63,906 nt of DNA from a virus (lineage: Duplodnaviria > Caudoviricetes). A program made the position numbers and the translations under genes. Where the stretch lies: IMG/VR virus record IMGVR_UViG_3300010371_000004, positions 1-63,906 of that record; one strand, given 5' to 3'. Numbering within the stretch: position 1 is the stretch's first letter; each line of letters opens with the position of its first letter. The notes beneath the pieces were generated by a model. It was not told the origin of the DNA, made no database searches, and saw only the letters and a program-made list of their open reading frames with translations. Positions 22,017 to 53,219 of the stretch are shown here, in pieces.

Positions 22017-22017
22017 C

Positions 22018-24869: not shown

Positions 24870-25370
24870 TCAGACCCGTGATACGACGTAAATCTGCATT
24901 AGGCTCATCCACTTAGGCTCTGACATCCACCGACGCGATCCTGGCCCGTGATGGGCGTGGCTCTCGAACGTGAACCCTTTGAAAATCAATAGGACGTGAC
25001 CGATCCCGCCGCCGTCCTTTGGATCTAAAAAGGCAATCCGAAATATCCCGTCTTTGTTCAAAGCATCGGCGGGAGTGCTTCTTTTGAAGCCGTGCGATTC
25101 AAAGTATTCATGCTGCTGAACCGATCCGTCAGGTAGGTCAAAATCCGCAGGCCGTCCAAGCGTTCGATAGAGGCAGTCCCGAACGAAGCCCGAGCAGTCG
25201 ATTTTTTCTATATCCACCAAATCGCAGCCGAGGTGCGGAACCTTTGATCCGAGTCCATAAACTACACCGGCTTTTTCGAGTTCCTTCGTGTACGCCTCTG
25301 GTTTGGTCACATCGAACGGATGGAACAGAGGCCAAGGATATTCAGAGGTCGACGGGATGATGCACTTCAC
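24870..25370 (-). CDS. NlpC/P60-like peptidoglycan peptidase (endolysin)
   Basis: YGLGSK...IDCSGFVR...GHV...ESH catalytic Cys/His pattern. Confidence 0.8.
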   Translation of the reverse strand: MKCIIPSTSEYPWPLFHPFDVTKPEAYTKELEKAGVVYGLGSKVPHLGCDLVDIEKIDCSGFVRDCLYRTLGRPADFDLPDGSVQQHEYFESHGFKRSTPADALNKDGIFRIAFLDPKDGGGIGHVLLIFKGFTFESHAHHGPGSRRWMSEPKWMSLMQIYVVSRV

Positions 25371-25529
25371 CCGCAAAGATTACCAAAAGGTCTGCTTAAA
25401 TCGTCCCTCACGCGCGTTTCTCTCAATGTGGAACGATCAACCGGACAATGCCCGTCTTGCCTCTACACGGTCCCCGTAGCCGTCATTATTGCCTTTGCCA
25501 GCGCCGTGGTAGATGTTCCATTCGGGAGA

Positions 25530-25679
25530 ATGAGCCAAGCTAAAAAGAAGTTACTTGCTAGGATCGCCGCCGATAGGTTCGCCTGTGAACTCTACTTGGA
25601 AGAAACCGCCGCACTGAAAGGCAAGATCCTCTTCTATGTTTGCGACGGCATCCCGATTGAGCCTCCACCGGTTGAGTAA
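25530..25679 (+). CDS. Small hypothetical protein (49 aa)
   Basis: MSQAKKKLL...PPPVE; its stop lies at the cassette-1 boundary. Confidence 0.4.
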   Translation: MSQAKKKLLARIAADRFACELYLEETAALKGKILFYVCDGIPIEPPPVE

Positions 25680-25758
25680 TCTCGCTTCGCTCGGTCGCTG
25701 CTGTCCGTCGTTGGTTGCCGAAACCGGAGTTTCGGTACGGTGGGTGGTCCTCGATTAC
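25673..25758. repeat. Conserved structured element A, copy 1
   Basis: Shares CTCGCTTCGCTCG, TGCCGAAACCGGAGTTTCGGT, GGGTGGTC and GATT, in order, with 42390-42479. Confidence 0.85.
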
Positions 25759-26033
25759 GAAAACAGGCTATCATAATCGTGGTTATACAAAAGCACGACC
25801 ATCTTTCGCATAACCAGCTTTTTATGAAGCCCTTTCGCCTCAACCGGAGTTTCGTTGAATTCGGAACCGGAATAAATGCTCCTTCGAAGAAAGGTTCACA
25901 GCGCGGCGACTCGGGCAAGCCGAGCACGCCTTGCACGGGGAGCGGGTAGTTCCCTTCGGACCTGGGACAGGGTTGAGGTGAACAGGGAGAGGGCGGCGAC
26001 TACAAGGCCGCACTTCTATTCGGGCCCCGAAAG

Positions 26034-26702
26034 TTACTTCGATTTAGTCGACGCTTCGTACATTGACGCAATTAATAGGGCAGCGAGCGCGGCTGGATTG
26101 CCTTTGCTCGCATCGCTCATAGCCTGACAGTACACGTCATTCGGTGTTGGTCGAGCGTAGCTTGGCATTCTCGTATGTATCCCGAATCGAGCACAGTAAG
26201 CCTTAAGTATTAGTCTTCCCATCCGTCCGTTTCCATTCAAAAAAGGATGGATGGTGTTAAATCTTCCGACAGTTTGGGCCGTTATTAGAGCGAGAGTCCT
26301 GACCTTCTGGTCCGGGTTCATTTTCGGATATGCCTTTTGGTAGTCAGAGATCTTCTTCGTACCTTCTTCAAGAACCGATCGAAGGTTCGACGGGACCTTT
26401 TGGAAATGAAGTCCTTGCATGAGAGTAATCGGGACGCTGCCGCTCCAAACCCGCACTGCAACGTTTTGCATTAGGCATGGCCGAGAAGCATCGTCCTGTC
26501 TTGTGTTGCCTGCGTAGTACGGCACCGGGACGCATGGTTTAAATGCTATTCCGTGCCACTCCGTCACTGCCGACGGAGTGACGGACTTTGAACTATCTAC
26601 TTCTATAACGCGCTTGTATAAGCGCATAAAGACCAATTTTTCCTCGCTTGTGCGAGTCTGATCATGCCACTCGGGGCAACTAACCGGGAGTGAACTCATC
26701 AT
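26034..26702 (-). CDS. Fic-domain protein
   Basis: Canonical motif HPFLNGNGRMGR. Confidence 0.9.
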   Translation of the reverse strand: MMSSLPVSCPEWHDQTRTSEEKLVFMRLYKRVIEVDSSKSVTPSAVTEWHGIAFKPCVPVPYYAGNTRQDDASRPCLMQNVAVRVWSGSVPITLMQGLHFQKVPSNLRSVLEEGTKKISDYQKAYPKMNPDQKVRTLALITAQTVGRFNTIHPFLNGNGRMGRLILKAYCARFGIHTRMPSYARPTPNDVYCQAMSDASKGNPAALAALLIASMYEASTKSK

Positions 26703-27135
26703 CCTCTGCGACGGAAGCTTCTAATTCTGACTCATTCAGCACCAATCCCCCAAGACTGTCTGCATTCTTTGGGAATAATTCGGCAACGCTTGCAATCATG
26801 TCCCCGATATTCCAATCAGCATTCACAGCAAAAGCATCAACTTGCTGAAACATGCCTTCAAACTCGCTAAGAATCGATTGCAGAGCAATGTCCGCCAAAT
26901 CTTCGGACGAGACATCAGCTGCTCGCGGCTTTGAGATATAGGCGGTTGAGGCCTTCTTAACTATCCGCTGAACTTCTGGATTAACAAAGTTGCCTGGAAC
27001 GTACTGAACTTCAAGTAGCTTTGCCACCTTAGTGGGACGCCACGGGCCCTCGTAACTCGAGATGCACTTCCCTCCGAGTTTTCTCCTGTCGCTCCAATCC
27101 CTTGATACTGCATCAACCGGCAAACTTAAAATCAT
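26680..27135 (-). CDS. Hypothetical protein upstream of Fic
   Basis: Middle gene of a tight three-gene operon. Confidence 0.6.
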   Translation of the reverse strand: MILSLPVDAVSRDWSDRRKLGGKCISSYEGPWRPTKVAKLLEVQYVPGNFVNPEVQRIVKKASTAYISKPRAADVSSEDLADIALQSILSEFEGMFQQVDAFAVNADWNIGDMIASVAELFPKNADSLGGLVLNESELEASVAEDDEFTPG

Positions 27136-27141
27136 GCGGGG

Positions 27142-27849
27142 TCAACTCACCTCGAATTCGGTCAAGTTCTTTTCTTTCAACAGCTTCTTTAGAGTACTAC
27201 TTTTTGCCCTTGCTCGGTCAAGCACCTCACCAAGTCCCTCAATATCGGCGGAGTCCATGGCGAAGAAGCTTTCCTTTGTTGCTCCGTCTTGCTGAAACAC
27301 GATTTTCAGCATATGAATCAATACGAACTGAGATGGGTCTTCGTCGGGACTTCCTGTGAAAACAGGGCGAATGTCCGTGAGTATTCTTGAGTCTCGGTAT
27401 ATTCGATCATGGTCTGCGTAGACACTGTAGACCTTAGAGACCATTCCAACTCCACTTTTAAGCGACAACAGCGATGGCAGACGACTCCAAACTACCTTGA
27501 TCTCTTGGGCGGTTAGCTGGCCGTCTTCAGTATCGGCCATACCATTCAAGATACTTTCCACAAACTGCTCCGGGCCAAGGTTGCGCAGCTGCATAACGCT
27601 AGTCATCGAGACAGTCGCAGAAAGAAGAGAATAAATATCCTCCGGTTTAAAGTCCTGCATTAGGGCCAATAGCCGATTCACAGACGGACCAAAAGAAGAA
27701 GATGGAGGACTGTCTCGAACTTCAGTCAAGAAGGTAGCAAACTGCTTTTCACTCATCGTGGCAATGAGTCTGATCGCGCCACGATCCTCAGGAGGCGGCG
27801 TCAGAGACGACATGACAAGACTTCGGTCAACATCTGATGCAGACGACAC
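27142..27849 (-). CDS. Conserved hypothetical protein, possibly COMM-domain-like
   Basis: Helical N-terminus; C-terminal RILTDIRPVF...IHMLKIVF...FFAMDSADIEGL. Confidence 0.6.
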   Translation of the reverse strand: MSSASDVDRSLVMSSLTPPPEDRGAIRLIATMSEKQFATFLTEVRDSPPSSSFGPSVNRLLALMQDFKPEDIYSLLSATVSMTSVMQLRNLGPEQFVESILNGMADTEDGQLTAQEIKVVWSRLPSLLSLKSGVGMVSKVYSVYADHDRIYRDSRILTDIRPVFTGSPDEDPSQFVLIHMLKIVFQQDGATKESFFAMDSADIEGLGEVLDRARAKSSTLKKLLKEKNLTEFEVS

Positions 27850-28460
27850 GACGCAAGCTTACCCACCGCGTCTAGTGAAATCTGATGCGCCGATGCACTA
27901 ATCCATCGCTACTAGAGCGTGATCATAGGCGGAATACTAAGTAACTGACCGCGCTACGCCACGAACAACGCTACCTGTAGCTCTAAGGACTTCCCTCGCA
28001 CCTGCTCGTATTCATGCTTGAGCACGGTCACCAAAACGTCCTCAGATCGGGTCAGATCCTGCTCATCGCGCCAAGGACCGAGCTTTGCGTCCGCTTTCGC
28101 TAGACGTAGTCGCCATTCTGGGTATTGGCCCAGGAGATCGCAGAGTGCGCGGTAGGCATCGGTGTCCACCGAATAACGCTACCTCGCCAAAGCCACATGA
28201 AACGCTATACAAGATTTGGCGGATACGTAGACAGAAGGATTCCAGTAAACCGGTAAACCTGTCGTATACTGAGGATGCCTAAAAGCACGAAGACCCAGTG
28301 TATCTAGCACTGAGTCTCCACCAAGGCAAAAACTTGAACGGATCGCGAGCCCCTTCAAACATCAGGGGGGTTACCCCTTCGGCATGTTCATTATAGCCGA
28401 ACAAGGTTGGACTCGCAAGACCTTTCTCGTTATTGTCCCTGGCACTAGGCAGGACAAGCA

Positions 28461-29471
28461 AATGAAGAAAGACAAAATACCACCTCATCATTCGGAAGAA
28501 ATACGATCCCTTGCGTCCCATGTGCTCTCTAACGATAAGTCGAGTGCCATCTCAAAGAAACTCGCTGCTTCCATTCTTGGTGGATCTAGCCATGAAGAGC
28601 ATCCAACGCCAAAGCGCAAGGGGGACAAGTGAACGGCGGCTTACCTCCTTATCGTAGGGTGGAGCCCATTGGATTCAAGGCATTCGGACCCGGCGCTACG
28701 GCTGGTTCAATTATGCGAGCCCTTGGACTAGATCCAGGACCATCTATCGGTCCGTACCCATCAATCAACATGATTACGAAGCCTCCCGACTCGACTGATC
28801 TCAAGGACATGGACAAAGTTGGAGATCAGATGGCAAGTGCCGCCACACAATACATGCGCACTCTGATGAACAACAATCAGTGCGAAGCGCACAAGGATCA
28901 AACGATCCCGAAGGCGGGATCGGTAGTAATAGGCATCGGCAATGGCGTTCGCATGGTGGCATTCTTGTTTTGCTGCGAATCCTACCGACCGATGGCAGAA
29001 CGCCACTGGAACACAGTCAGTAGCCTAATGCTTCGCGAATACGGTCGGGGCCTACTTCACGAATAGAGTAATGGACATCCCCTTTTGCGGCAAGTGACCG
29101 GGGATGCAAGTGGCTTCCCCGCCTAACGCCAATCAGAACGGGGAGAGCCGGAGGTTAGAAAAATGAACAGAGACGCAGCACTTCAAAAAATGGCCGCAAT
29201 CGGAAGGAAAGATCCAGTCTTATTCAAGACACCATACAAGGCGTACTTTTACGACCTGAACGACATCGACAGCAGTTCCGTATCACTCGTTCCGCTTGCC
29301 GTTAAACAACTAGATACGCTGCCACCGGAGGGGATCATTTTTGAATTCTCGGGTCAGACCTACCAAGTACAGGAGTGGTACATAAGCGGAGATACCGGAG
29401 ATCTTGTAATCATTCTCAATGAGGTGTCCCAGAGAATTAAGGTAACGGCATTGTCTGGTAACCCTGATTGA
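28461..29471 (+). other. Three cargo CDS (about 28461-28632, 28629-29066, 29163-29471)
   Basis: RBS-preceded ORFs of unknown function. Confidence 0.55.
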
Positions 29472-29817
29472 GATCGCGTTTAATTTGTGCTTTCATTTCG
29501 GGGGTCATCCAAGAGAACGGGACATATGGACCCTCGATCTGCTCTACGATGTGGCGGGCCTTGTATAAGGCCACCGCCTCATCCAAAGACTCAGGCGCAG
29601 GAATCTGGGATAAACCGCTAACCGCCCCGGCACCTTCGGTCCCGTCTTGTAGGCTCAGGCAACTACGAGGCCGGTCTTCATAAATTGATCTTATCGGCCC
29701 GTCTTTCTCGCTTAGGCTCGGAAGGGTCCCGCACGAAACGTCATCCTGACTCCATCGGGACAAACTCATCGTGAGTCTCCGATAAGACGAAATTATGAAA
29801 ACCTTGAGTAGCCCCAT
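29437..29817 (-). CDS. Hypothetical protein, apparently expressed from a TATAAT at the edge of element B
   Basis: TATAAT-6 nt-ATG. Confidence 0.4.
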   Translation of the reverse strand: MGLLKVFIISSYRRLTMSLSRWSQDDVSCGTLPSLSEKDGPIRSIYEDRPRSCLSLQDGTEGAGAVSGLSQIPAPESLDEAVALYKARHIVEQIEGPYVPFSWMTPEMKAQIKRDLNQGYQTMPLP

Positions 29818-29824
29818 ACTCCAA

Positions 29825-29929
29825 TTATACGCCTCTTCGCAGAAAGCGGTAGGCAACTACCAGATGCGGGTCCGCTGACTCCCGTGATTACAAGATGTCG
29901 AAGGGTACACGCGGACCCTGGAAACAAGA
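29825..29929. repeat. Conserved structured element B, copy 1
   Basis: 26-nt identity CTACCAGATGCGGGTCCGCTGACTCC plus CTTCGCAGAAA and TACACGCGGACCC shared with 44159-44262. Confidence 0.88.
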
Positions 29930-30145
29930 CGCACCGGTTGAGTAGGGAACATACGAATAACGCCGCCTAATGATCCGGGATCTGGAGCTTCAACGCGGCG
30001 ATGTAGTCGGCCAATAGTTGAAGATCGCTCAGCCCATCAGGATCAACGCCATCGAAGTCGCTTTGAACTGATGTTTGCGAATGATTGTTGGTTCCTGATT
30101 GAGTGTTCAGGCACCCGGCGATGTAGGCAGCAAGCGTGTTCCCCA

Positions 30146-30940
30146 TTATTTCCGCAGGGTACCCAACTTCACTAGCACGTCATGGTTAAACTTAACCTCA
30201 GTGTCGGTGAATTTAACAATCATAGCGTGATCGGCTTCAAACCGCGCATGATCCTGATTCGAACGCTCTTTAAGCACCTTAACCTCGTCGTCAACCTTCT
30301 GACGAAGAGCCGATTCGAGCGCCGCCATTTGTTGCGCACTCGCTGGAGGTGGCATATTTACAGCCACGTTGACACCATAGGCGCAGATAGCCGTGAACGA
30401 CAAAGCAACCACCAGAATGGCGATTAAGAGGCCCTTGATCGAGGGATCTTCTCTGTCTGTCCTAGACATGCTTTGACTCCGATATACCGGCTTCTCGGCC
30501 TCTTTGGAAGTTCTTCTCATCAATCAGAGACATTACAAGCGCTTTCAAGTCGGCCACCTCTTTATCTCGAATCTTGTCGAGTTCCTGATCTGCGAACTGA
30601 TGCTTAATGACGGCTGAGATATCGTTCAGACCCTTGACGCCGATCCCGACCAACGCACCGACGACCAGAAGGATTGACCCTTGCAGAAGTTGTGAGAAGT
30701 TCAGGTTCATTGATGTACCGGGCCATCCCTAGCGACGACTTTAAGCAACTGTTCGGTCATTAGTTTAGCCGCTTTAATCTCTTCAAGTCGCGAAGCTTTT
30801 GCTTCTGTAATGTGACGTTGCCGGTACTTGATCCTTTTCAGTCCAATGTGACAAAGGGCAGATAACGTAAAAGCAGCACCAATGAGCCCCGAAAGGAAGA
30901 TAAAGTAGAGGATCTGTGAAGGACTCATAGCTTCGTTCAT
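30146..30940 (-). other. Three membrane-protein CDS (30707-30940, 30462-30710, 30146-about 30523); candidate holin/lysis accessories
   Basis: One hydrophobic segment each; late strand, upstream of the endolysin. Confidence 0.5.
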
Positions 30941-31047
30941 CTATCTTAGCGGATTGGCAAAGAAAGAACCAAGTTCACTCAGTCCCAAATTCTGCTGTAA
31001 TTGACATCGACGCGGTATTGGGTGTCAGTGGTTACTGTTCATAGCTT

Positions 31048-31079
31048 AGGGCCGTTCTGAGAAATCGGAGCGGTCTTTT
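31048..31079 (+). terminator. Intrinsic terminator
   Basis: GGGCCGTTCTGA-GAAA-TCGGAGCGGTCT followed by a T run. Confidence 0.6.
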
Positions 31080-31336
31080 GCTGTATGATGTAACCGCAAG
31101 TCAGTAAATCTTTTTCCAATCTTGGGCCGCGCTTCCCCCGGAGTTGCGGCCTCTTTTGTAAATCACCATGAGTCAGAACCTAAGTGATGATGCAGTAGAC
31201 CATTGGGAGGTGTTCACGATCTGGCTTTGTTGGTTTGCAGCGGTTGCGTTGATTGGGTTCTATCTGTTGCGGTAACCTGTACTTGCGGTTCAGTGTTGGG
31301 TCACTCCAGCATTGTTCCGCATAGGAGTGACATATC

Positions 31337-31807
31337 ATGCCCATCGTCATCAAGAAAAGCGAAACCGCCGATACTAGATCGTGCGACTTTGCGAACGTCT
31401 CAAAGAACACCCTTTTAGCGAGTTCTGTTCAACATATCGGGGACGTTCAGCAAGCCCTACAGTTCTTCTCCAACAAGATCGCAGAGGAACAGCGTGTCCA
31501 TGACTTCGATAAGATCACGGATATCGACGGCTTCCATCACGACTTTGTGACCGGGTTCAAAGAAACCACTTGGTGGGAAGCGCATCGCCAACTCAACCGA
31601 CACCACCTTGGAATGGCTGACGGTGTTCGTGACGACGTAAATCTGATCGACGTTCTAGCGTTCATTGCTGACTGCGTGATGGCGGGCATGGCGCGAACCG
31701 GCGAAGTCTATCAGTTGGAACTGTCGCCCGATCTGTTGAAGCGAGCATTCGAGAATACTGTAGCCATGCTCAAGTCAGAAGTCATTGTTACAGTTCGGGA
31801 AGCATAG
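31337..31807 (+). CDS. Phage hypothetical protein (HD-like His/Asp motifs)
   Basis: HIGDV...HDFDK...HRQLNRHH...DCVMA; AGGAG RBS. Confidence 0.7.
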   Translation: MPIVIKKSETADTRSCDFANVSKNTLLASSVQHIGDVQQALQFFSNKIAEEQRVHDFDKITDIDGFHHDFVTGFKETTWWEAHRQLNRHHLGMADGVRDDVNLIDVLAFIADCVMAGMARTGEVYQLELSPDLLKRAFENTVAMLKSEVIVTVREA

Positions 31808-31924
31808 CTTAAGCGACAGCCCATAATCAGAACGCCGCCAAACTCAACAGGAAGAGGAAGCGGCGTTCCTATTCGGTAAACTCCCAATCACTTCGGGACG
31901 CCGAGGTAAGGAAGCAAACAATTC

Positions 31925-32200
31925 ATGAGTTGGGTTAGCGTAATCGTATCAGCACTTGGAGCAGACGCAATTCTGCCGGTCCTCGAAACCATCGAAATCA
32001 CGGAACTCGAAGGAAAGGGCCACGACTTCATTGCGAACCACGTCGTCATCTCCGAGGCGAATCTCGAAGCACTCGTAAAGCACACGGGCGCGGATCTTGC
32101 TCCGGCACAAGCGGCAAACAAAGCATTTGGACAGGCGTTCGCGGATCTGGTTCTTGCGGTGAGTCCAAAAGCGCCACATACCGGCGTTCCTGCCGTCTGA
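31925..32200 (+). CDS. Hypothetical protein
   Basis: AAGGA RBS; followed by a terminator. Confidence 0.6.
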   Translation: MSWVSVIVSALGADAILPVLETIEITELEGKGHDFIANHVVISEANLEALVKHTGADLAPAQAANKAFGQAFADLVLAVSPKAPHTGVPAV

Positions 32201-32227
32201 GGTTCGTTTCTAGCCTCTGAAATGGTT

Positions 32228-32257
32228 AAGCCCCTGATTGTTACGTCAGGGGCTTTT
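32228..32257. terminator. Terminator hairpin between convergent genes
   Basis: AAGCCCCTGA...TCAGGGGCTTTT. Confidence 0.7.
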
Positions 32258-32274
32258 CTGTTGGTGAGAGAGAC

Positions 32275-34217: not shown

Positions 34218-34393
34218 TCCATCGCTCCTGTCTTAGTAGATGAAGTGGAGGGAGAGGATTTTCCTTTGCGCTGAAGGTAGCACTGGAACATAAACGCCGA
34301 CATGGACACCCCAGCGCGTTCGGCTTCGTAAGCTATTTGGGTTTTTTGCTCGGGCGACACCCTGACCACGATTTCATTATCTCGTCTTGCCAT
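34214..34393 (-). CDS. Ribbon-helix-helix regulator (DUF1778/MobC-like)
   Basis: IVVRVSPEQKTQIAYEAERAGVSMSAFM. Confidence 0.7.
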   Translation of the reverse strand: MARRDNEIVVRVSPEQKTQIAYEAERAGVSMSAFMFQCYLQRKGKSSPSTSSTKTGAME

Positions 34394-34442
34394 GCCAAAA
34401 TAATACCACACATTGCGGCATACCATGTGGTATATTGATCGT

Positions 34443-35294: not shown

Positions 35295-35336
35295 AACCCG
35301 ATAACCCCATCCACTACAAACTAAGGAGAAGAGACC

Positions 35337-37233
35337 ATGAAGATTATCCAAAAGAACGGCGAAATCAAGACGCTTTACGTGGGTCGCAGGTCGGCCAATG
35401 TGCTCTTGATTAAGCATCGGAACACAAGCTATGGCGGCGATCCTGTCAACCTTGCCAAAAAGACAGGTCTTGAATCCATTCGGAAATATGAAGGTGCGCT
35501 AGAAGCCGAGATTGCGGCACAAACCGAGAAATACGAAAGACTCAAGGACCAAAGCAGGGACGCTTACCGCGAACTCGCGGACCTGTTGAATCAGGCTTAT
35601 CAGGATTCGCCTCCCCTGACATACGAAGAACTAGCCGCCGAATCCGAGGGCTAGCCCCTCCCCCCCCCAACACAGTAGAGAGAACCATGAGAATACGATT
35701 AACAGTTGAGATTGAATACGAGACAGATCCCAAGGATTACTTCCTCGGACCAAACCCTACCGCTGAGATCATCGGGCGATACGACATGGAAGGGGACACA
35801 GACTGCTTACTTGATGGCAAGTGGACATTCATCAAAGCCGAAGAGGTCCAAGCATGAACCAGAGACCAGAGTGGGCAAAGGGGTCGGCTTGGGATGGCTG
35901 GGAAAAGAGCCACGGCATAGGCGTATCAATCCAAAGATCTACCGCGAATGGCGTTGAGTTCACGATCTACCCAAGCGGCAGGATGGGTGTACTCGCCAGT
36001 GCCTATATCGTGCTCGAATTCAAGACTCCCGCCGATGCTTTGGCCGTTGCCGAATTTATCGCCAGCAAGTTAGATGGAGGTTGGAGCAAGTGAGCGAGAC
36101 AGACCAACCATTCAACGCCTCCGAGTTCCTAAAGTTTAGAAGGAGTCAAAACACGCCAATGGAAAAGGAATTGACACGAGAAGAGATACAGAAGTTGATA
36201 CGGGATGCGTTTATGGAAGGCTACAACGAAGGTTTGAGCGGTGGGCATCCTATGAGTCGTCCACGACCTGAAGCAGCTTGGGAAGAATCCTATTCCAAAG
36301 ACGCCTATGACGAGATCCGAGCTACAAGAGCATCGGAGCCAAATCCACTCGAAAGACTTGCCGAATTGCACGATCCCAACGTAAGCGACGAAGAATTTGC
36401 AAAGCAGGTAGAGGACTTCAGCAAAGGGCAAAAACCCTCGATCTTTGTCCCCACGCTTTCAGAAGATGGCAAGAGAATTGTGTCTTACACCGTGACGCCC
36501 GGCGAGGGAATTCCACCGGGAACCAAGTGCGGACTTGGTGTTACCTTTGGAGAAAACTCCGAGATGCCTACTGATACTGCAAAGGGGGAAGAGTGAACGA
36601 AAAAGATCCATTTGCCGCATCTAGAACCTGGGCTATCGTTTCTGCAATCTTTGTAGCGGCCACGTTGATTCTATTTGCGATGGCTAAAACCGAGTCAGAA
36701 GAAATGACCCACCTAAAGCGTATCGAGCAGAAGCTAGGGATACAGTAGCCATGAATAAAGCATTTGTTTGGGATTACGGCATGGAAGGTGGCAGCGGGGG
36801 CGGCGGTAAGGTGATTATCGCCGAATCACTGGAACAGGCGGTGCAGATGGCCCGAGATAATTACCATAATCACTTAATAGAATCGTCACAAAGACCATCT
36901 AACGCTAAGTACATGGAACAGAATCCTACTTGGGTTGATGACCAATTATCTAAATGGGACCTCGGTCAACCGAGCAGAATTATTGAAGGCGCTGCGATCA
37001 TAGAAATTGAAGGCGGCTATTCTTGGTGAAGAAGCATGAGAACCTTTAGCGCCATCACCAAGAACCAAATGCTCGTCGCTGTCGATCTAGTCCAAAGTTC
37101 AGGATCTTGTCAGACAGGCAGGCTTGTAATCCACGATACAAACAAGAAAGCACCCGACAGAGCGTTACTGTTTTCAACTCCTCAAGTAGCTGAAAAGATA
37201 GCCCGTCTGATTGTTGAGGATTGGGGAGACTAG
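35337..37233 (+). other. Hypothetical CDS (35337-35654, about 35854-36093, about 36090-36596, 36751-37029, 37036-37233)
   Basis: Co-directional ORFs, some coupled. Confidence 0.6.
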
Positions 37234-37253
37234 CATCAGACTCCCCGTGAAAG

Positions 37254-39836
37254 CTAAATGAGGTATCCGATAATTTCAGATGCCAGTGTTTGAGATGTCC
37301 CAGTTGCACCGACCGTAATGCTCAGGTACACCGTCGAAGCCGCTGCATAGGCTGTAATAGCTCCCGCAACCGTCTCGAATTCGTACCCTGCCGCCGCTGC
37401 CGTAACGCCCGTCAGGAGCGTAGCCGCATAGATTTCCGATCCTCCATTTGTTGTTCCTATACCTGCGGTTGGAGCCACCGTTATCGCGCTTGCAGCCGTA
37501 CACCTGACTATTGCACTTTGGATAATTAGAGATCGTCCGGTAGGAACCGTGTAGATCAAGGTGCCAGCTACCGTCTTACCGTTGACTCCGCTAGCCGTGG
37601 CGAGAACATCCAAACGGAACGGCTGAACCTGGGTATTTACGGTCGAGTTGAACGTGTATGCCTGGACGACCGTCGATCCTATGTTGTTGTTCGCAACAGT
37701 CACGCCCGTTAAGCCTGAATCGACTAGAACACCCACGGCGAACGGATTGACGATGGTGTTCCCGATTGCGCTTGTACCGTTCCCAGCGAGCCATATACCG
37801 TTCGTTGAGCCCGTCGTTCCCGTGATGTGGTTCCCGATCACAAGCGTATTCAAGTTGGCCTTGATGCCAGTGCCGCTTGAATTAGCGTTTGATACGGTGT
37901 TCCCGGAAATTACAGTGCCAGGATTGTTGCCGCCCTGCGCATTGATCGCAATTGACGCGGTGCATCCCAAACAACTATTGTTGCTAAATAGCGTCGTTGT
38001 AGAAGTCTGAATCGAGGCGCTGTTAGAAAACCCGTTGATCGAGTTACCCGAGATCGTGACGTTGGAAGAATTGAAGCAGCCGACGCCCGTTGCGTTTGTC
38101 GCCGCGCCAGTTCCGTGCATCACGTTACCGGTTACGCTGACATTTACAGCGTGGTTCATATAAACGCCGTAGGATTTTGAGTTCGGAGAAATGATGTCGT
38201 TTCCAGATACAACCACATCAGCGGGTCCAGTGCCGCCCGCTGTGTTCTGGATCATAATGCTGGCCTGGTTCTGACCCATGCCGCAGTCTATGAACCTATT
38301 GTTAGCAACCTCAATTTGCACCGGTTCATCGGAGTTATTCCCGGGCTTAATGTCAGCACCGTTAGTTAAACAAAGGTTAAGCGTATTCCCGGTGAGCCGA
38401 ACGTTAGAGTTTGCAGCCGAGTCAATCGAACCAAGTCCAGCAAACGACGTACCGCGCACGTAGCAACTTGACACAAGAGACATTGCGACATTGTTTGACC
38501 AGATGATGCCGCCGTTTGCATGGCCGACCATCGGGTCAAGATTACAATTTATGACCGTACAATCGGTGACCTTACAAGCGCCGTCGCCCTTCGTGCCCAG
38601 CGTCGGGTCGGAGTTCGTGAAGTGGATACCGTTGCCCCAGATGTTTTGAATCCGGGCACCTTTGACGAGGTTATACGAGTTGTAAATGACAACACCCTCG
38701 CCCGGGAAATTCTGGATAGTTATGTTTTGAACCGTACAGTTATTGGCATTGACGCGCACCGCCGAAGTGTTCTGCCACGATCCAATAGTGAAATTTGCAT
38801 AGTTCCCGTCGATAGTGCCGGGACCCTGAAGAAGGTTTCCCGTTCCTTGAAGGTCGAATACATCGGATGCCGAGTAGAAAGAAGATCCAACCGCGAACGT
38901 ACCGGTAAAGGCACCATCCATCGTCACTTGAGTCGATGAATCAACCGAGAGGATATTAGGAGCCGTGCCTGCCTCGTCCACAGTGGCCGCTGAGACACGG
39001 AAATCCGCGTCTTTACCTGTTCCGCCTGTAGCGGTATTCGTAGGCTGAGAGACGATTGTAGATCCATCTCCGCCGACAGTGTAGGAGGTAATGCGGCCAG
39101 AACCAGCCGCGTCGAGAACCGGGGTGATTGTTGCACCGGTTGCACCAGCCGCACACGTTGGAAGTCCGGCTCCTGCAGTGTAGCCCGAGCCATACCCAAG
39201 ACATGACCCGGCAAAAGCGGAGTACGTCATTGTGGCGTCGCCAGTGCCGGTAGCGAATGTTAAAAGCCCGCTTGCCTGTGGATTGCCTAGACCTTGCCCC
39301 GCGCACGTGACGGTTCCTGATTTGGTCGGTGCCGACCCAGTGAGGCTGACCGCCGTAACCGTCCACGTAAAGGTACTGTTAGTCCAAGTCGATCCCACGC
39401 TTGGGGTCGTTGAAACCCCAGACACCGTGAACACTACCGACGCATCGGCCTTGTACCGGGGGAATGCAAAGTTGATTAGACCGGCTTGTCGAAGACTGTA
39501 TGATTGCCCGGCTACCATTCCAGCGGTCGAAGTCAATTGAATGACCGTATCGCCTGGATTCACTTGAGACGTGATTGTGGTGATGATCTGGCTAGCAAGT
39601 TTGACTGTAGCTCCATTGAGATAGATGGATTGACCCGCAGTTGTTGATCGGAGATCTCCGCTTACAATGTACGTCTTGCCAGCCGTAAAATTGACATTTA
39701 GTCCTGTAGCCAAGGCGGTTCGAATCGCTACCGTATCGTCAGTCGTTCCATCGCCTTTCGCGCCCTTTGAATCGACGCTGATAGACAAAAGGAACTTGGT
39801 GTTAAATGGTGCGGTTGATCCTGCTGGTATTGGCAT
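37254..39836 (-). CDS. Tailspike/depolymerase with a right-handed beta-helix
   Basis: GAKGDGTTDDTVAI pectate-lyase-3-like start; many V/I-x-G-N beta-helix repeats. Confidence 0.82.
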   Translation of the reverse strand: MPIPAGSTAPFNTKFLLSISVDSKGAKGDGTTDDTVAIRTALATGLNVNFTAGKTYIVSGDLRSTTAGQSIYLNGATVKLASQIITTITSQVNPGDTVIQLTSTAGMVAGQSYSLRQAGLINFAFPRYKADASVVFTVSGVSTTPSVGSTWTNSTFTWTVTAVSLTGSAPTKSGTVTCAGQGLGNPQASGLLTFATGTGDATMTYSAFAGSCLGYGSGYTAGAGLPTCAAGATGATITPVLDAAGSGRITSYTVGGDGSTIVSQPTNTATGGTGKDADFRVSAATVDEAGTAPNILSVDSSTQVTMDGAFTGTFAVGSSFYSASDVFDLQGTGNLLQGPGTIDGNYANFTIGSWQNTSAVRVNANNCTVQNITIQNFPGEGVVIYNSYNLVKGARIQNIWGNGIHFTNSDPTLGTKGDGACKVTDCTVINCNLDPMVGHANGGIIWSNNVAMSLVSSCYVRGTSFAGLGSIDSAANSNVRLTGNTLNLCLTNGADIKPGNNSDEPVQIEVANNRFIDCGMGQNQASIMIQNTAGGTGPADVVVSGNDIISPNSKSYGVYMNHAVNVSVTGNVMHGTGAATNATGVGCFNSSNVTISGNSINGFSNSASIQTSTTTLFSNNSCLGCTASIAINAQGGNNPGTVISGNTVSNANSSGTGIKANLNTLVIGNHITGTTGSTNGIWLAGNGTSAIGNTIVNPFAVGVLVDSGLTGVTVANNNIGSTVVQAYTFNSTVNTQVQPFRLDVLATASGVNGKTVAGTLIYTVPTGRSLIIQSAIVRCTAASAITVAPTAGIGTTNGGSEIYAATLLTGVTAAAAGYEFETVAGAITAYAAASTVYLSITVGATGTSQTLASEIIGYLI

Positions 39837-40549
39837 TACGACACGCTCACATAAAAGGCGTCACCGGCTACACCATTCGCATAAAGGACATTCGAGTTAG
39901 CGACGGCAAAACCTACGGATTGCCCCGGTTGGAGCGCATATCCATTCCCGGTGCCATCTGTCGCATCCGTGACCGTAGATCCCCCGATAGTTCCACCAAT
40001 GGACCCCGCTGTGCTGGTGAAATTAGAATTACTTGGCCCGGCTGAAACGAGAACACCGTTTACCGCCGCAAGGCTTGGTAATTGGACCCTTGTGCCTGTC
40101 ACTGCGATAACAACCTGGCCGGTTCTCTCTGTACCGAGGGCGTTCGCCACGACTGTCGCATTAACATTAGACCCGCCACCCTTTTCGCCAGGAATGCCGC
40201 TCCCGTTGCCCGTAGAGGCGGTGATCGTTGCGGAACCCGATGTCCACGAAACGAAGTAAACGAAGACTTGGAGAGCCCCGACCGGGCAGGTATAAATTCC
40301 CGTTGCGTTCGCCGCGATTCCCGTTGACCCGTCGTTGGTGTTTGTGATGCTCGAATCCAATACTCGCGTAAAGTTCGTGCCGTCCATCGAAACAGCTACG
40401 CCGATCTGTCCGACATAGCCTGCACTCGCGATACCGAATATAAGACCACCGATACCAGGACCGCCGCCAACCGGCAAATATGATCCAGCCGTCATCGGCA
40501 ATGTGGAATTAGCGTTGGCAAGCGTGATATTGCCTGAGTTCTGACTCAT
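39836..40549 (-). CDS. Virion beta-sandwich protein
   Basis: Gly/Ser/Thr-rich; coupled to the tailspike. Confidence 0.65.
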   Translation of the reverse strand: MSQNSGNITLANANSTLPMTAGSYLPVGGGPGIGGLIFGIASAGYVGQIGVAVSMDGTNFTRVLDSSITNTNDGSTGIAANATGIYTCPVGALQVFVYFVSWTSGSATITASTGNGSGIPGEKGGGSNVNATVVANALGTERTGQVVIAVTGTRVQLPSLAAVNGVLVSAGPSNSNFTSTAGSIGGTIGGSTVTDATDGTGNGYALQPGQSVGFAVANSNVLYANGVAGDAFYVSVS

Positions 40550-40690
40550 TTAAGCCATCTCGCAATAAGAAGGGATGAAATCATCGTGGGACCTCCATAG
40601 CTGTAAACTTATGTCGGCCTCGATACCCTTAATATCTTGGCTATCGGGTCATCTTCGGATGGCCCTTTCTGTTTTTCTATTCTACACCGT

Positions 40691-42358
40691 TTACGCAACC
40701 ATATTTACAGCCACCATTGCATAGGCCGATGCAGGAGCGATACCATAGCCCATCGTTACAGTCGCACCGTTCCCTAGAGCAACAGACATAGCGACGTTAT
40801 CCCCTGAAATTACCCCTGTGGCCTTCGAAGTCTGGGTAGACGTCAAAACACCCGGCGAGAGGATTGCATCGACTACAAGGTCACCCAGCGCAGAAGATAA
40901 GGGCACACTAGCTGACGCGGAACTCGCACTGTTTGCTGTTCCAACTGTTCCGAGTGCTACCGATGCCGGAGCATCCAAAGACACGCCCATCACATACACG
41001 TTCGGGCCTCCCGTGTAGGTGAAAACGACCGCATGAGTGCCTGGAGCGTTCGTTAGGAGATAATACAGAGTCACCGTTAAAGTGCCCTGAGTCACGGTGC
41101 CTAGTGGGACCGGGGTTACTCCGACTCCGTTGTAGTCTTGAACCACGACGGCACCGGGGAGTCCGACAACGCATTCGGCCAGGATGATAGGACCGCCTCC
41201 ACTCGTGAGATTGAATGTGACCGTACCGGCTGAAATCGCCGCGCCACCTGAGTCGATGACTGAGACCGAAGTCGTAGGATCAACTGGGAAAATAACCGGG
41301 GGATATCGAAGGCTTGGAGAACCGCCCCCAACGACCGGAATGGCATCCGCATAATAGCCAGGTTGGATCGCGGCGTAGGTATATGATCCCGTATAGTCCT
41401 TCAACGTGATCGTGTAGCCAGTTGACCCCGCTGCGCCGTTCCAAACCTGAAATGGCATAGGCGGATTTGAGAGCAAAACATCAATATTCGCGGTAGGAGT
41501 GATTCGAACTAATGATGGATCGGTCGGAGTAAGCGCAACCGTTGAGCCCGTGGTATCGGTCGTCGTGGCTGTCCCGATAGCCTGGTATGCGCCGTTCACC
41601 CAAAGAAAAGAGCCTGCTTGCGTGTGCGTGACAAATAGCGTGTCGGTTGACGGAGTATCAACAGGAGCCGCGACATCGTTCGTAAAGCGTTGCCAAAGGT
41701 TCCCGTTTGGTCCCATGACGCCCGAGTAGTCAATCGTGCCAGGTGTAATCACGCCTGCCGCCGTGGTGCAGTTGCCAATGAGAACCGAGTTCATCGCGGG
41801 CGGCGTAATCGTGGTTGAAAAGTCAAGCGTTCCCGCCGAGTTGCCTAGAGCGTTCCATGCGCCTAGCTTTAGCCAAACGTAAACGATAGACGTAGCGTCA
41901 GGAAGGGTTAGGGTATCGCCCGCGAATTCTAGCGAAGAAAAGGCCACGGCAACACCGTTGGTCACGCCAACATTTAGCGCCGTGACTGCCGCTAGAGCGG
42001 TGACTGTCCAGTAAGTCCCGTTGGGAGGCGCATGTCCAACCGTGGTTAGGATGCAAACATAAGTCACGCCACCACTTGAGGCGTATTCCCCCGGCTGATA
42101 GGTTGTTCCTGCATCGTAAGCCGTGTAAAGCTTCAATCCCGACGCAACACCAAACGTCCCCCCAGGATAAGATCCCATCACCGTCACGACCGCTAAAAGT
42201 TGGTTCAGCTTCTCAGTGATATTAGTTGCGAAATCACCTGTCGAAAAGGGAGCGTCTACCGGGTCCGTGGTGGTCGAATCGGTGCAAGTGCTCCGAAGAT
42301 AGGCCACAGTCGGACCTATCGGTATTGGAGTTTGATCGGAAGTTAGTCGGTAAGCCAC
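40691..42358 (-). CDS. Tail fibre-like protein with a CBM5/12-like motif (likely start GTG 42358)
   Basis: YDAGTTYQPGEYASSGGVTYVC...PPNGTYW; the longer start at 42472 runs through element A. Confidence 0.7.
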   Translation of the reverse strand: MAYRLTSDQTPIPIGPTVAYLRSTCTDSTTTDPVDAPFSTGDFATNITEKLNQLLAVVTVMGSYPGGTFGVASGLKLYTAYDAGTTYQPGEYASSGGVTYVCILTTVGHAPPNGTYWTVTALAAVTALNVGVTNGVAVAFSSLEFAGDTLTLPDATSIVYVWLKLGAWNALGNSAGTLDFSTTITPPAMNSVLIGNCTTAAGVITPGTIDYSGVMGPNGNLWQRFTNDVAAPVDTPSTDTLFVTHTQAGSFLWVNGAYQAIGTATTTDTTGSTVALTPTDPSLVRITPTANIDVLLSNPPMPFQVWNGAAGSTGYTITLKDYTGSYTYAAIQPGYYADAIPVVGGGSPSLRYPPVIFPVDPTTSVSVIDSGGAAISAGTVTFNLTSGGGPIILAECVVGLPGAVVVQDYNGVGVTPVPLGTVTQGTLTVTLYYLLTNAPGTHAVVFTYTGGPNVYVMGVSLDAPASVALGTVGTANSASSASASVPLSSALGDLVVDAILSPGVLTSTQTSKATGVISGDNVAMSVALGNGATVTMGYGIAPASAYAMVAVNMVA

Positions 42359-42389
42359 TGAGTGTAAGGATACGACATTTGAAGCCCAC

Positions 42390-42479
42390 TGAGAATTTAC
42401 TCGCTTCGCTCGATGCTTTTCCTCTCCCGCTGGGTCTGCCGAAACCGGAGTTTCGGTTAGGCGGGTGGTCAAGATTCAG
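42390..42479. repeat. Conserved structured element A, copy 2
   Basis: Same ordered blocks as 25673-25758. Confidence 0.85.
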
Positions 42480-42681
42480 CGAGCCATTTTAATATCAGAG
42501 ATTCCACTTGACGGCTCATGTTGATGTTCCTATCCTTGCAATGGGCACTAGCCGCGTCGTAGGATTCCTGAGTCATGCTGAAACTGAACTGTTTCCGCTT
42601 ACGCTGAGATCGTGGAATTGTTTTCTTGATTTGTTCTTTTTCTATTGCGTTTTGTATCTACACCGTGATACTATTATACCA

Positions 42682-42756
42682 GCAGTCGGCTGGCCGATAG
42701 TCAGGCCGAGCCTTATTAGCTCGGAGAGAGAGGGTTAAACTCCTAAGACTGCACCC
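42682..42756 (+). ncRNA. tRNA-like cloverleaf (degenerate; TAT at the anticodon position)
   Basis: GCAGTC/GACTGC acceptor; TGGC/GTCA D stem; CCGAGC-CTTATTA-GCTCGG; weak T arm with loop TTAAACT. Confidence 0.45.
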
Positions 42757-42765
42757 AAGGTTTAT

Positions 42766-43083
42766 ATGGAACAGACATTCTATGCTTGCGACGGGTTAGA
42801 TTCACCCCAGAAGTGGTGGCAGTTTGCGTGGCGCTTTACTGGCCGTCGCCGATCTTGGCGTTTAATCTACGATACGCCCGAGTCGGCAGAAGCGCATAGT
42901 CGGGATTCATCCGGGAAGAGTTGGATTTGGGACGGCAAACCAGCCGCGCCGATCACGCTTGCAGAGTCTCAGGAGAACGCTAAGAAACTCGGTGATAAAG
43001 GAACGGCACTCGTTACCTACCAAAGAAAGAAGTTTGGTGGGCTCATTATCGTTCTGGGACAGTGGCGCGTCGATGAGCAGTAA
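42766..43083 (+). CDS. Hypothetical protein
   Basis: AAGG RBS; overlaps the start of the HNH gene. Confidence 0.55.
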   Translation: MEQTFYACDGLDSPQKWWQFAWRFTGRRRSWRLIYDTPESAEAHSRDSSGKSWIWDGKPAAPITLAESQENAKKLGDKGTALVTYQRKKFGGLIIVLGQWRVDEQ

Positions 43084-44164
43084 ACCGCCTGGACTTTGCG
43101 GCAAATGCAATCTTAGGCAGCGCGACGGCGGACGGTCTTACTGCGATGAGTGCTCTCGTCAGATTAACGCCGAGTACCGTGAGCGAAAGAAATCGGGATT
43201 GCGATTGCGCGGGGCAAAGGGTCCGTCTGGATCGGTATGTATTGGGTGCAATTCAGCGCCCAGATGCAAGCACGGTGGTTGCTATTGCCGCTCATGTTAT
43301 AACCAAAGGCAGCGTGACTTGCGCGCTGAGAAATCCGGGTACACGCAACCCGATCAAACCGCTACATGCATCCTTCGTGATTCGGACATTTCGAACGCAC
43401 CCGAAAAGCGAAGCAAAGGCGTTGTGACAGCTTTCGGTATTGTCCCGAACAGGCAATACCTCCCAGAGTACACCACATGGAAGAACATGCGGTACCGATG
43501 CTATTATGCTCGCTGCGCATCTTTCAAGCATTACGGAGGGCGCGGAATAACTGTTTGCGACCGATGGCGAGACTCTTTTGAGGCCTTTTATCAAGACATG
43601 GGTCCACGTCCCGGTGAGCACTATTCTATTGACAGGATCAACAAGGACGGCAACTATGAGCCGTTAAATTGCCGTTGGGCGACTCAAAGCGAACAGTTGA
43701 GAAACCGGCGATCATGGACATGGGCCGCTGATGATAGGTCGCGCATGAGTCCTGTTGAACGAGCTATGGCCATCCAAAAAGCACGTTCTTTTAAGGGAGA
43801 ACATCTTACCGGTGAAGGATCAAATGGTTCATCATTAGCGCCCGATGCGCTCAGAGAGGATGCCGCAAATCGCGCAATGTCTGTTCTTCGCAAGCGGTAT
43901 GGAAACTATGACCTAAAGGCACCCATCCGCGAATCTCTTCACGAAATGGACCGGTCCACAGAAACGCCTACGGCCAAGGTGTTCGATTGCTACGGGTCCA
44001 ATACCGTAGAAGATCAGGCGAACTTTGCTTGGCTACTGTCTCACCTAACAGAATCCGAAATGGAACTCGTCATGGACAGAATGGACGACGGGAAGATTGG
44101 ATCTTTTGATGATCCTGAGTTGGCAGATATTCGCGCCAAGTTAGCACCCGTCTTAGGTTTATAA
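43073..44164 (+). CDS. HNH homing endonuclease with zinc fingers and an extra C-terminal domain
   Basis: YTTWKNMRYRC...YGGRGITVCDRW...SIDRINKDGNYEPLNCRWAT. Confidence 0.85.
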   Translation: MSSKPPGLCGKCNLRQRDGGRSYCDECSRQINAEYRERKKSGLRLRGAKGPSGSVCIGCNSAPRCKHGGCYCRSCYNQRQRDLRAEKSGYTQPDQTATCILRDSDISNAPEKRSKGVVTAFGIVPNRQYLPEYTTWKNMRYRCYYARCASFKHYGGRGITVCDRWRDSFEAFYQDMGPRPGEHYSIDRINKDGNYEPLNCRWATQSEQLRNRRSWTWAADDRSRMSPVERAMAIQKARSFKGEHLTGEGSNGSSLAPDALREDAANRAMSVLRKRYGNYDLKAPIRESLHEMDRSTETPTAKVFDCYGSNTVEDQANFAWLLSHLTESEMELVMDRMDDGKIGSFDDPELADIRAKLAPVLGL

Positions 44165-44262
44165 CGCACTTCGCAGAAAACGGGAGGCGGCTACCAGATG
44201 CGGGTCCGCTGACTCCATCGAATACAAGAAGTCGGTAACTACACGCGGACCCGGAGACTAGA
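44159..44262. repeat. Conserved structured element B, copy 2
   Basis: Same blocks and core spacing as 29825-29929. Confidence 0.88.
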
Positions 44263-52639: not shown

Positions 52640-52643
52640 AGGC

Positions 52644-53213: not shown

Positions 53214-53219
53214 TTTTGA

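Follow-up and report, generated by a model that had tools for sequence, protein, structure and literature searches.

Phage accessory genes, among them genes for defence, counter-defence and nucleases, turn over fast, and to our knowledge few of the vehicles have been recognised beyond homing endonucleases and recombination at conserved motifs. Cis-mobilizable elements (CIMEs) are att-flanked elements without an integrase, and integrase-type insertion is usually recognised by a short core at a gene's 3' end, the gene being restored. IS200/IS605 elements insert 3' of a short target word and do not duplicate their target, and the core site of integrons is GTTRRRY. For T4-type phages, the accessible parts of two reports (PMC2839356, PMC4122927) describe PeSLs, short conserved motifs around variable genes that mediate indels and mini-circles; a PeSL is one motif made up of a promoter and a terminator stem-loop, which is found on both sides of the cassette and left at empty sites.

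We analysed one stretch of DNA (the window), a complete 63.9-kb soil phage genome of 63,906 nucleotides. Two unrelated cargos in it lie between the same asymmetric pair of ends, and these islands look like a small, unclassified kind of insertion cassette. There are exactly two copies each of element A (about 75-90 nt) and element B (about 105 nt), in constant order and orientation. This arrangement, proposed in a preliminary description of the sequence, was borne out by alignments, a repeat finder, blastn and covariance models. The models, each built from the two copies of its element, were run over the whole window and returned two A and two B, all four on the + strand, and nothing more.

Empty sites in relatives, which the preliminary description expected of a mobile unit, were found in one close relative with flanks 92-98% identical. 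Both island sites are present and uninterrupted there, without either cargo, and neither A nor B was detected by blastn or covariance model in the whole 62-kb contig. The limits of both insertions fall 0-41 nt from the outer edges of A and B, which fits a unit defined by A and B and would otherwise be coincidental. This insertion polymorphism supports the conclusion that the A-cargo-B units behave as insertions. An independent assembly of run X1, possibly the source sample, contains the island junctions as well. With one relative only, two precise losses are indistinguishable from two gains.

Island 1, which carries the Fic cargo, has the following features:
25320..25679, + strand: gene X (119 aa), with island 1 inserted at its stop codon
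25666..25678, + strand: left copy of the 13-bp direct repeat CACCGGTTGAGTA, comprising the last codons and first two stop-codon bases of gene X
25679..29931: island 1, a clean 4,253-bp insertion compared with the relative's contiguous site (three-way junction alignment, blastn, X3 contig joint)
25678..25752, + strand: A1, left end of island 1 (covariance model 92.8 bits, E 1.8e-23; alignment, repeat finder, blastn)
26034..27849, - strand: block of three cargo genes
26034-26702, - strand: Fic-domain protein (PF02661 E 8.8e-8; PADLOC PDC-S04/SoFic)
26680-27135, - strand: 151-aa protein
27142-27849, - strand: 235-aa protein
29825..29933, + strand: B1, right end of island 1 (covariance model 131.2 bits, E 3.6e-46; alignment, repeat finder, blastn)
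29932..29944, + strand: second (right-hand) copy of the 13-bp repeat, with GGGAACAT.CGAA after it, just as in the relative

To the left of the island, window positions 25385-25678 are 98.3% identical to the relative (blastn). The 13-bp repeat, present as a single copy in the relative, is not expected by chance (P 0.0004-0.0005 versus shuffles), and because it overlaps the end and stop codon of gene X, the target gene is intact and its protein unaltered. Read directly off the sequence, the repeat lies within a 14-bp imperfect palindrome, CTCCACCGGTTGAG. The final base of the island is a G. The Fic gene had been named from the letters alone and was recovered by both Pfam and PADLOC. The labels "holin" and "endolysin" given to the neighbours of this island were not confirmed, the flanking ORFs having no family match (gene X itself matches no Pfam or PHROG family). 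Searches with Pfam, PHROGs and PADLOC found no nuclease in the cargo.

Island 2, which carries the HNH cargo, takes the place of a short spacer between two genes of the tail region:
40691..42358, - strand: downstream gene (weak tail-fibre PHROG match), with start codon GTG at 42358-42356, ATG in the relative
42359..44257: island 2, 1,899 nt from the start codon of the downstream gene to the stop codon of the upstream gene; 9 nt in the relative
42397..42473, + strand: A2, left end of island 2 (covariance model 98.9 bits, E 3.4e-25; alignment, repeat finder, blastn)
42766..43083, + strand: 105-aa ORF of the cargo
43073..44164, + strand: HNH endonuclease gene (363 aa; phrog_3377 E 3.7e-36), opposite in strand to the flanking tail genes
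44159..44262 (to 44267 in the covariance model), + strand: B2, right end of island 2 (127.5 bits, E 8.5e-45; alignment, repeat finder, blastn)
44258..47374, - strand: upstream gene (1,038 aa), 97% amino acid identity to the relative

The contig joint connects 42357 to 44270 with 22 letters between them. On the left, 41 nt separate A2 from the target gene; on the right, B2 begins at the stop codon of the HNH gene and ends about 5 nt from that of the upstream tail gene. The repeat flanking this island is not significant (P 0.15). The earlier placement between two tail genes is plausible from the surrounding module (terminase, portal, protease, capsid and beta-helix protein), with the two bordering ORFs themselves giving weak matches (tail fibre phrog E 0.003; CBM_5_12 below cut-off). 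The HNH assignment stood in PHROGs and had no counterpart in Pfam, and the 105-aa ORF has no family match and found only itself in a collection of 5.8 billion proteins. The tRNA-like RNA once suggested for this island was not recovered, the only tRNA found in the window by ARAGORN and Rfam being a tRNA-Asp at 198-273.

Between the islands, blastn aligns B over 105 nt (80%, E 8.8e-21) and A over 73 nt (79%, E 1.3e-9), with every other match at E > 0.5, and tblastx adds nothing beyond these two elements, in agreement with the earlier impression that the cargos share nothing visible. With the repeat finder, B comes out as an ungapped 94-nt match of 81% identity and the core of A as 34 nt at 91%. 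Pairwise alignment of the copies shows runs of identity of 13, 21 and 8-11 nt in A and of 11, 26, 7 and 13 nt in B, with the differences concentrated in the spacers between these blocks. When match and mismatch columns were shuffled 20,000 times, the longest identical run had P 0.002 for A and 0.007 for B; for the three longest taken jointly, P was 0/20000 (A) and 0.0004 (B). This agrees with the pattern of identical blocks and diverged spacers noted before. The copies of A and of B are only about 70-80% identical and thus far more diverged than the two phages, so the islands, in line with the earlier proposal, do not stem from a recent internal copy and are two distinct members of a single kind. 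The two elements do not resemble each other. Aligned locally to B in reverse complement, A scores no higher than shuffled sequence (P 0.46-0.88), which agrees with the earlier statement that the ends are not inverted repeats.

The preliminary description took A and B to be structured and the block pattern to reflect selection on structure. Strong structure was not confirmed, with fold z-scores from +0.56 to -2.46 (both strands counted), and we do not prefer selection on structure over protein-binding blocks, given two sequences per element, a small number of informative pairs and fold energies that are not significant. From two sequences each, the predictions are an invariant 8-bp hairpin for A and a long-range helix of 10 pairs for B. 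These predicted helices contain wobble pairs, which hint at an RNA or single-strand role instead of recombination arms. Neither element matches a known stand-alone Rfam motif; such a match had been named as contrary to a cassette. At gathering score over the window, A and B match no intron, ribozyme or other family, and no intron or ribozyme appears in either island at E up to 5. The 3' portion of A was not found to pair with the 5' portion of B, nor whole A with whole B. Neither a sigma-70-like promoter nor an intrinsic terminator lies inside A or B, sigma-70 being a type that may not be the host's.

Family searches of the cargo proteins found no recombinase, TnpA or reverse transcriptase, as the preliminary description had it. 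Pfam was applied to 40 of 120 ORFs (including all those of at least 180 aa outside the islands except one of 189 aa at 52644-53213), among which there was no integrase, other site-specific recombinase, TnpA or IntI. Searches of viral, metagenome, genome, phage and plasmid collections yielded no third copy of either element, so nothing points to a family, master copy or enzyme beyond these two copies.

We tentatively read A and B as the end regions of non-autonomous insertion cassettes moved in trans, probably via site-specific recombination. Each A-cargo-B unit would have entered the phage genome whole, either where a gene ends or between genes, and the mobilising enzyme would come in trans from the host or from a co-infecting element. 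The chemistry would most likely be that of tyrosine-integrase-type recombination, with crossover between a circular B-core-A form and a short core of matching sequence in the target. This would place the A arm at the left junction and the B arm at the right, with the core on both sides and the conserved blocks, which may be recognition sites, kept. The absence of terminal inverted repeats and of a shared protein argues against an ordinary DDE transposon. Counted against our reading are the wobble pairs in the predicted helices, the lack of a significant repeat at island 2, the unaccounted-for 41 nt beside A2, the negative searches for a third copy and for a recombinase in the cargos and scanned ORFs, and the equal fit of two precise losses in the relative, and the assembled contigs (contigs only, no reads) contain no B-core-A circle joint. 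The proposal in the preliminary description that these are the ends of a non-autonomous gene-capture element is supported in part, by the insertion polymorphism and the 13-bp repeat, and the case for its structure-based component is weak; the evidence speaks neither for nor against its alternative, an RNA/ssDNA device allowing cargo to sit within late operons.

In comparison with known systems, the islands resemble CIMEs and integrase-type 3'-end islands in having cargo between two different end regions, a short direct repeat (island 1), and an insertion that overlaps a gene end and restores the gene. No recombinase lies inside the islands, so movement would depend on one supplied in trans, as in CIMEs. 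Unlike CIMEs, these units of only 1.9-4.3 kb sit in a phage genome, and island 2 has no clear repeat. An att-type identical core, on both sides and once in the empty site, is present for island 1 and not for island 2. The integrase gene of a tyrosine-integrase element is missing from both cargos and from the ORFs scanned, and no integrase is known to match these cassettes. Asymmetric ends without inverted repeats, a predicted hairpin near each end, possible strand specificity and a TnpB gene in the same genome recall the IS200/IS605 family. That family, including its non-autonomous forms, fits poorly since the 13-bp direct repeat of island 1 contradicts its no-duplication rule; TnpA is absent from the 40 proteins scanned, and A and B do not match the ends of the TnpB element (model search of the window; ends read). 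A DDE transposon or MITE was disfavoured for want of terminal inverted repeats; as to the fixed-length target duplication of such elements, island 1 has 13 bp and island 2 nothing significant. The 13-bp repeat contains GTTGAGT, which fits the integron core site, but B has no inverse core (by eye), island 2 has no such site and no IntI was found among the scanned ORFs, so an integron cassette was not accepted. A group II intron was set aside because there is no Rfam domain match and no reverse transcriptase among the cargo proteins.

A farther-reaching reading, which we consider doubtful, is that A-cargo-B represents a new class of recombinase-less gene cassette moving between phage genomes. 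Such a class would have two different strand-specific structured ends, read as + strand ssDNA or RNA, and insertion beside stop codons or between genes would keep host operons intact; the HNH island may be an autonomous form and the Fic island a non-autonomous one. If the ends define a mobile unit, they would offer a means of tracking down such cassettes in viral metagenomes and of asking how late operons take up defence-like genes such as Fic and stay whole, with just these two copies found so far.

The islands could instead have arrived by ordinary phage-phage recombination, A and B being regulatory or transcript-end modules of a donor phage lineage's variable accessory region that travelled as passengers or PeSL-like recombination linkers. 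We give this a rather small chance. Genes for a YqaJ exonuclease and for RecT are present in the phage, the left 37 kb of its genome is a patchwork of conserved and replaced segments when set against the relative, and a Fic defence-like gene and an HNH gene are typical accessory material. PeSLs, as far as their published accounts were available (PMC2839356, PMC4122927), are a documented precedent, likewise consisting of short non-coding motifs around variable genes that mark indels between relatives. However, the relative's sites hold no A or B. The islands therefore could not have come in by homologous exchange at these elements, and one motif would remain after a deletion of the PeSL type. 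A and B are also two dissimilar sequences in fixed order rather than one motif on both sides, and they lack promoter and terminator consensus (with the qualification about the host's promoter type); a PeSL-type cassette was rejected on these grounds. Nor would random breakpoints end near the outer edges of A and B at both insertions, and the 13-bp repeat is left unaccounted for. We judge it unlikely that the HNH enzyme of island 2, or one from co-infecting relatives, cleaves genomes lacking the island close to the site and that repair copies the island in, with A and B as untranslated or regulatory flanks carried along and island 1 as a cassette minus its nuclease. An HNH gene present or absent between close relatives, inserted between conserved genes or at their ends, is indeed typical of free-standing homing endonuclease cassettes and phage group I introns. 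In island 2 the HNH gene shares the strand of A and B and adjoins B; divergence from the relative rises beside the junctions, like co-conversion tracts (read by eye); and of the two free-standing HNH genes in the relative, one lies about 400 nt to the right of where island 1 would be. The accessible part of one study (PMC10448857) reports that the boundaries of phage-phage genetic exchange carry nuclease genes. Homing, however, copies into a homologous site by flanking homology, which does not account for an identical end pair at a second, unrelated locus without a nuclease, nor for the 13-bp duplication, and neither A nor B stands beside the relative's HNH genes.

It is also conceivable, and in our estimate improbable, that both islands are ancestral and were deleted in the relative, A and B being old local sequences rather than ends of a mobile unit. 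A single relative does not polarise gain against loss, and deletion between the two 13-bp repeats would give exactly its island 1 site. This would nevertheless require two independent deletions, each taking A, cargo, B and nothing else, together with a prior 13-bp repeat just outside A1 and B1 (chance P about 0.0004), and A and B common to two loci would stay unaccounted for. Least credible, to the point of being very improbable, is that a self-splicing (group I-like) intron has A as its 5' part and B as its 3' part, with cargo in a loop. The sizes fit (about 90 nt, an HNH ORF, about 105 nt), the unit is precisely absent from the relative, and island 1 ends in G. Yet the Rfam searches described above found no conserved P3-P9 core, no intron and no ribozyme, the A and B parts do not pair, island 2 is antisense to both neighbours, and a 13-bp duplication is foreign to intron homing; a group I intron was rejected accordingly. 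Splicing would also bring no benefit, as both insertions sit at stop codons or behind them.

Elsewhere, the genome carries an IS1595-type transposase and the TnpB gene, both absent from the preliminary description and with no link to A or B. The 235-aa protein of island 1 is unlike any recombinase and falls in a widespread bacterial family of hypothetical proteins, which we note as a lead only.

The preliminary description placed two cargo islands in this phage genome, each between a left-end element (A) and a right-end element (B), and both elements sit where it put them.

25320-25679, plus strand: gene X (119 aa); island 1 is inserted at its stop codon
25678-25752, plus strand: A1, left end of island 1
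29825-29933, plus strand: B1, right end of island 1
25679-29931: island 1, with the Fic cargo
42397-42473, plus strand: A2, left end of island 2
44159-44267, plus strand: B2, right end of island 2
42359-44257: island 2, with the HNH cargo, between two tail-region genes

When the two islands were compared using blastn and tblastx, the sole matches were A (E 1.3e-9) and B (E 8.8e-21), which agrees with the claim that the cargos share nothing visible. Identical blocks of 13, 21, and 8-11 nt are common to A1 and A2, and blocks of 11, 26, 7, and 13 nt are common to B1 and B2. Of 20,000 shuffles of the match and mismatch columns, 0.2% for A and 0.7% for B reached the longest identical run; the summed length of the top three runs was reached by none for A and by 0.04% for B. 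The differences are thus clustered, and the described pattern of identical blocks split by diverged spacers is real for both elements. Covariance models, each built from the two copies in the window, identified exactly two A and two B there, all on the plus strand, with no weaker copies. A third, partial copy of the A hairpin (16 of 18 nt) lies at 25837-25854, 120 nt right of A1, within about 270 nt lacking a convincing ORF. The 22-mer just left of B1 (29807-29828) reappears, matching at 20 of its 22 positions, within a structural gene at 55426-55447, where no B-like sequence follows; by our estimate this recurrence is near chance level for this genome.

We compared the window with a relative, a 62,116-base viral contig (G001) encoding a 1,038-aa tail protein with 97% identity to that of the window; the comparison covered the whole contig, as loci L004, L005, L007, and L008. 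The predicted empty sites were found: both island sites are present in the relative without islands, and neither A nor B was detected in it by blastn (E up to 1) or by the covariance models (E up to 10). Window positions 37209-42357 and 44270-57355 match adjacent parts of the relative with 94% and 92% identity, and the island 2 site between these blocks measures 22 bases in the relative vs. 1,912 in the window. At the island 1 site, 25385-25678 is 98.3% identical to the relative and the next match begins at 30246; right of the short matching stretch at this site the two genomes diverge again. Both joints of the relative also appear in a contig of 62,007 bases from a separate public run. In the run containing the window's sequence, contigs cross all four island junctions without differences, which means that the islands do not stem from an error in a single assembly. 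Among the sequencing runs listed as containing the sequence, none is an RNA run.

The island 1 site is uninterrupted in the relative (...CCTCCACCGGTTGAGTAGGGAACATGCGAA...). The window has the 13 bases CACCGGTTGAGTA twice: one copy (25666-25678) immediately precedes A1, the other (29932-29944) immediately follows B1, and next to this right copy comes GGGAACAT.CGAA, the same continuation that the relative shows. With the site in one piece in the relative and the 13 bp on both sides in the window, island 1 is a clean 4,253-base insertion. Against shuffled flanks, the direct repeat has P ~0.0004. It spans the final codons of gene X together with the stop, leaving the protein unchanged, and, as read directly from the sequence, it lies within an imperfect palindrome, CTCCACCGGTTGAG. 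For island 2, the best candidate for a flanking repeat (ACTGAGAATTTACTC vs. ACT-AGAATCGACTC) was not significant (P 0.15). Read on the coding strand, the two tail genes are separated by stop codon-9 nt-ATG in the relative and by stop codon-1,899 nt-GTG in the window. The GTG start belongs to the tail gene on the downstream side of island 2 (window 42356-42400, minus strand), where the 9-nt spacer of the relative, GAAAAGAGA, is absent. Neither the relative nor the sequence beside A1 has a counterpart to the 41 nt from A2 to the start codon. Similarity upstream of A1 and A2 and downstream of B1 and B2 was not significant (P 0.24-0.99). No circle junction was found in the assembled contigs compared with the window, a result for which the uncovered parts of public runs X2 to X4 are uninformative.

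The A and B islands are a real, non-chance feature. The end pairs A1/A2 and B1/B2 are about 70-80% identical, far more diverged than the two phages, and in both islands the inserted DNA begins and ends near the outer edges of A and B. Taken with the island-less relative, these observations indicate that A-cargo-B came in, or was precisely lost, as a unit on two occasions and from different sources. We weighed against this the possibility that A and B are linkers like the PeSL (promoter-terminator stem-loop) cassettes of T4-type phages, with the islands brought in by homologous exchange. Because the target sites have neither A nor B, exchange through these elements cannot account for how the islands came there, which weighs against a PeSL-like linker role as that system is described in PMC2839356 and PMC4122927. 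Neither a sigma-70-like promoter nor an intrinsic terminator was found within A or B. An intron failed every test made, an ordinary transposon does not fit the missing inverted repeats, and an IS200/IS605 element does not fit the 13-bp repeat.

For island 1, the best fit is a crossover within the 13-bp core at the end of gene X, which resembles the crossovers made by tyrosine integrases. Such a crossover would insert the island, with A and B acting as the two arms of the attachment site of the element and the recombining enzyme being supplied from elsewhere. We consider this reading somewhat less than an even bet because no core shows at island 2, an enzyme of this type was not seen, and the copies number only two. 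A Pfam scan of 40 of the 120 ORFs in the window, covering all those of at least 180 aa outside the islands except one of 189 aa (52644-53213), found no integrase. The most likely reading is that the two islands are insertion cassettes of a kind not yet classified.

The A-cargo-B cassettes are not yet a family. By the routes used, no further copies of A or B were found in viral, metagenome, genome, phage, or plasmid collections; the pattern scans demanded exact conserved blocks, so diverged members could be missed. Neither a 20-mer nor a three-block pattern of B matched any viral contig. The two-block pattern of B matched 12 times each in the metagenome and the genome contigs, but none of these matches (0 of 24) extends past the seeded 16-18 bases, and all are thus taken as chance. 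The single viral match to the 19-mer of the A hairpin lacks the other A blocks and was also set aside as chance. Five viral matches to the A two-block pattern, representing three distinct sequences, were rejected as well: their likeness is limited to the bases that the pattern fixes, one falls within an ORF of 412 aa, their best model score is 16 bits, and none of the five records contains a B. A short blastn search of B against phages and plasmids returned chance-level matches only (E 1-3).

As had been stated, A is not an inverted repeat of B. Base pairing between them was no better than in shuffles on either strand, and the only short word they have in common is CTTCGC. Both are non-coding, judging from 1- and 2-nt indels, from the same block falling in different frames between copies, and from differences that, by reading, lack an every-third-base pattern. 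The description of the ends as structured did not hold up in fold energies, which were not significant on either strand (z +0.56 to -2.46). In consensus folds from two sequences each, A has an invariant 8-bp hairpin within a longer predicted helix rich in G-U pairs (8 of 21 pairs are wobble in at least one copy), and B has a predicted 10-pair long-range helix and a small inner hairpin whose loop is kept and whose stem differs between B1 and B2. Since wobble pairs become mismatches on the minus strand, the plus strand is mildly favored; this is a hint, from two sequences only, that any folds may act on that strand. Rfam searches, of the whole window at gathering scores and of both islands at E up to 5, returned only tRNA-Asp and ylbH, the latter at 18 bits and far under the 50-bit cut-off. 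No known Rfam motif matches A, B, or either island.

The genes of the islands and of the surrounding genome that bear on mobility or on genome organization are as follows.

Island 1, minus strand: three-gene block ending in a Fic-domain protein
27142-27849, minus strand: 235-aa protein of the same block, from what may be a large, widespread family of unnamed bacterial proteins
446-1393, plus strand: IS1595-type DDE transposase with zinc ribbon (PF12762 E 6e-34, PF12760 E 4e-15)
17779-18867, plus strand: TnpB gene (PF07282 E 3e-22)
21108-23028, plus strand: YqaJ-like exonuclease and RecT gene pair
Right end of the window, minus strand: terminase, portal, S49 protease, major capsid protein, and beta-helix tail protein

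Both named cargo genes were recovered. The Fic gene is identified by Pfam (E 8.8e-8) and by the PADLOC models PDC-S04 and SoFic, and the HNH gene by PHROGs (E 3.7e-36), while Pfam does not see it. In structure, the 235-aa protein weakly resembles COMM-domain proteins (TM ~0.43-0.44), which may serve as a lead. The other island 1 ORFs have no family match; one of 145 aa had no usable match in an Atlas search and gave a poor structure model, and thus may not be a gene. Island 2 carries a 105-aa ORF, for which a protein collection search returned only itself, and the 363-aa HNH endonuclease, both on the plus strand. The tRNA-like RNA claimed for island 2 was not recovered, as ARAGORN reported none and neither island holds a tRNA-like gene or Rfam family. 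Neither the HNH nor the 235-aa protein has close relatives in viral contigs.

The relative has two free-standing HNH genes related to that of island 2 (L007 ~15015-15645 and 11801-12142; domain identity 49% and 35%, respectively), one of them some 400 nt to the right of the site of island 1. There is no A or B near these genes, nor are there analogous repeat pairs around them. Run X2, from a second study, contains two 200-nt HNH-gene contigs identical to window 43302-43501 and 43954-44152, and several of its tail-gene contigs differ from the window by 2-10%. This pattern reflects either the same phage at low depth beside a relative or an island common to diverged phages.

The window is a complete virus record of 63,906 bases with a 123-base direct terminal repeat. 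A comparison of its left 37 kb, the accessory and replication region, with 50,697 phage records gave no DNA match. Both islands with their flanks likewise had zero blastn matches to the phage records. Nothing ties the IS1595-type transposase, TnpB, or the YqaJ/RecT pair to A or B. The DNA surrounding the transposase (~81-2572) had no blastn match in loci of two relatives, and DNA matching the YqaJ/RecT pair was not found in the relative. The TnpB copy of the relative (L007 18509-19640, 72.6% identical) lies elsewhere in the genome in reversed orientation, which indicates that TnpB elements move within this phage group. We also observed a perfect 22-nt inverted match between 18104-18125, inside the tnpB ORF, and 54436-54457, in a structural-module ORF, which is far beyond chance in a 64-kb genome; positions 39414-39447 are 71% complementary to the same place. 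In the early region, 2965-3054 and 3753-3842 form a 90-nt direct repeat with 71% identity.
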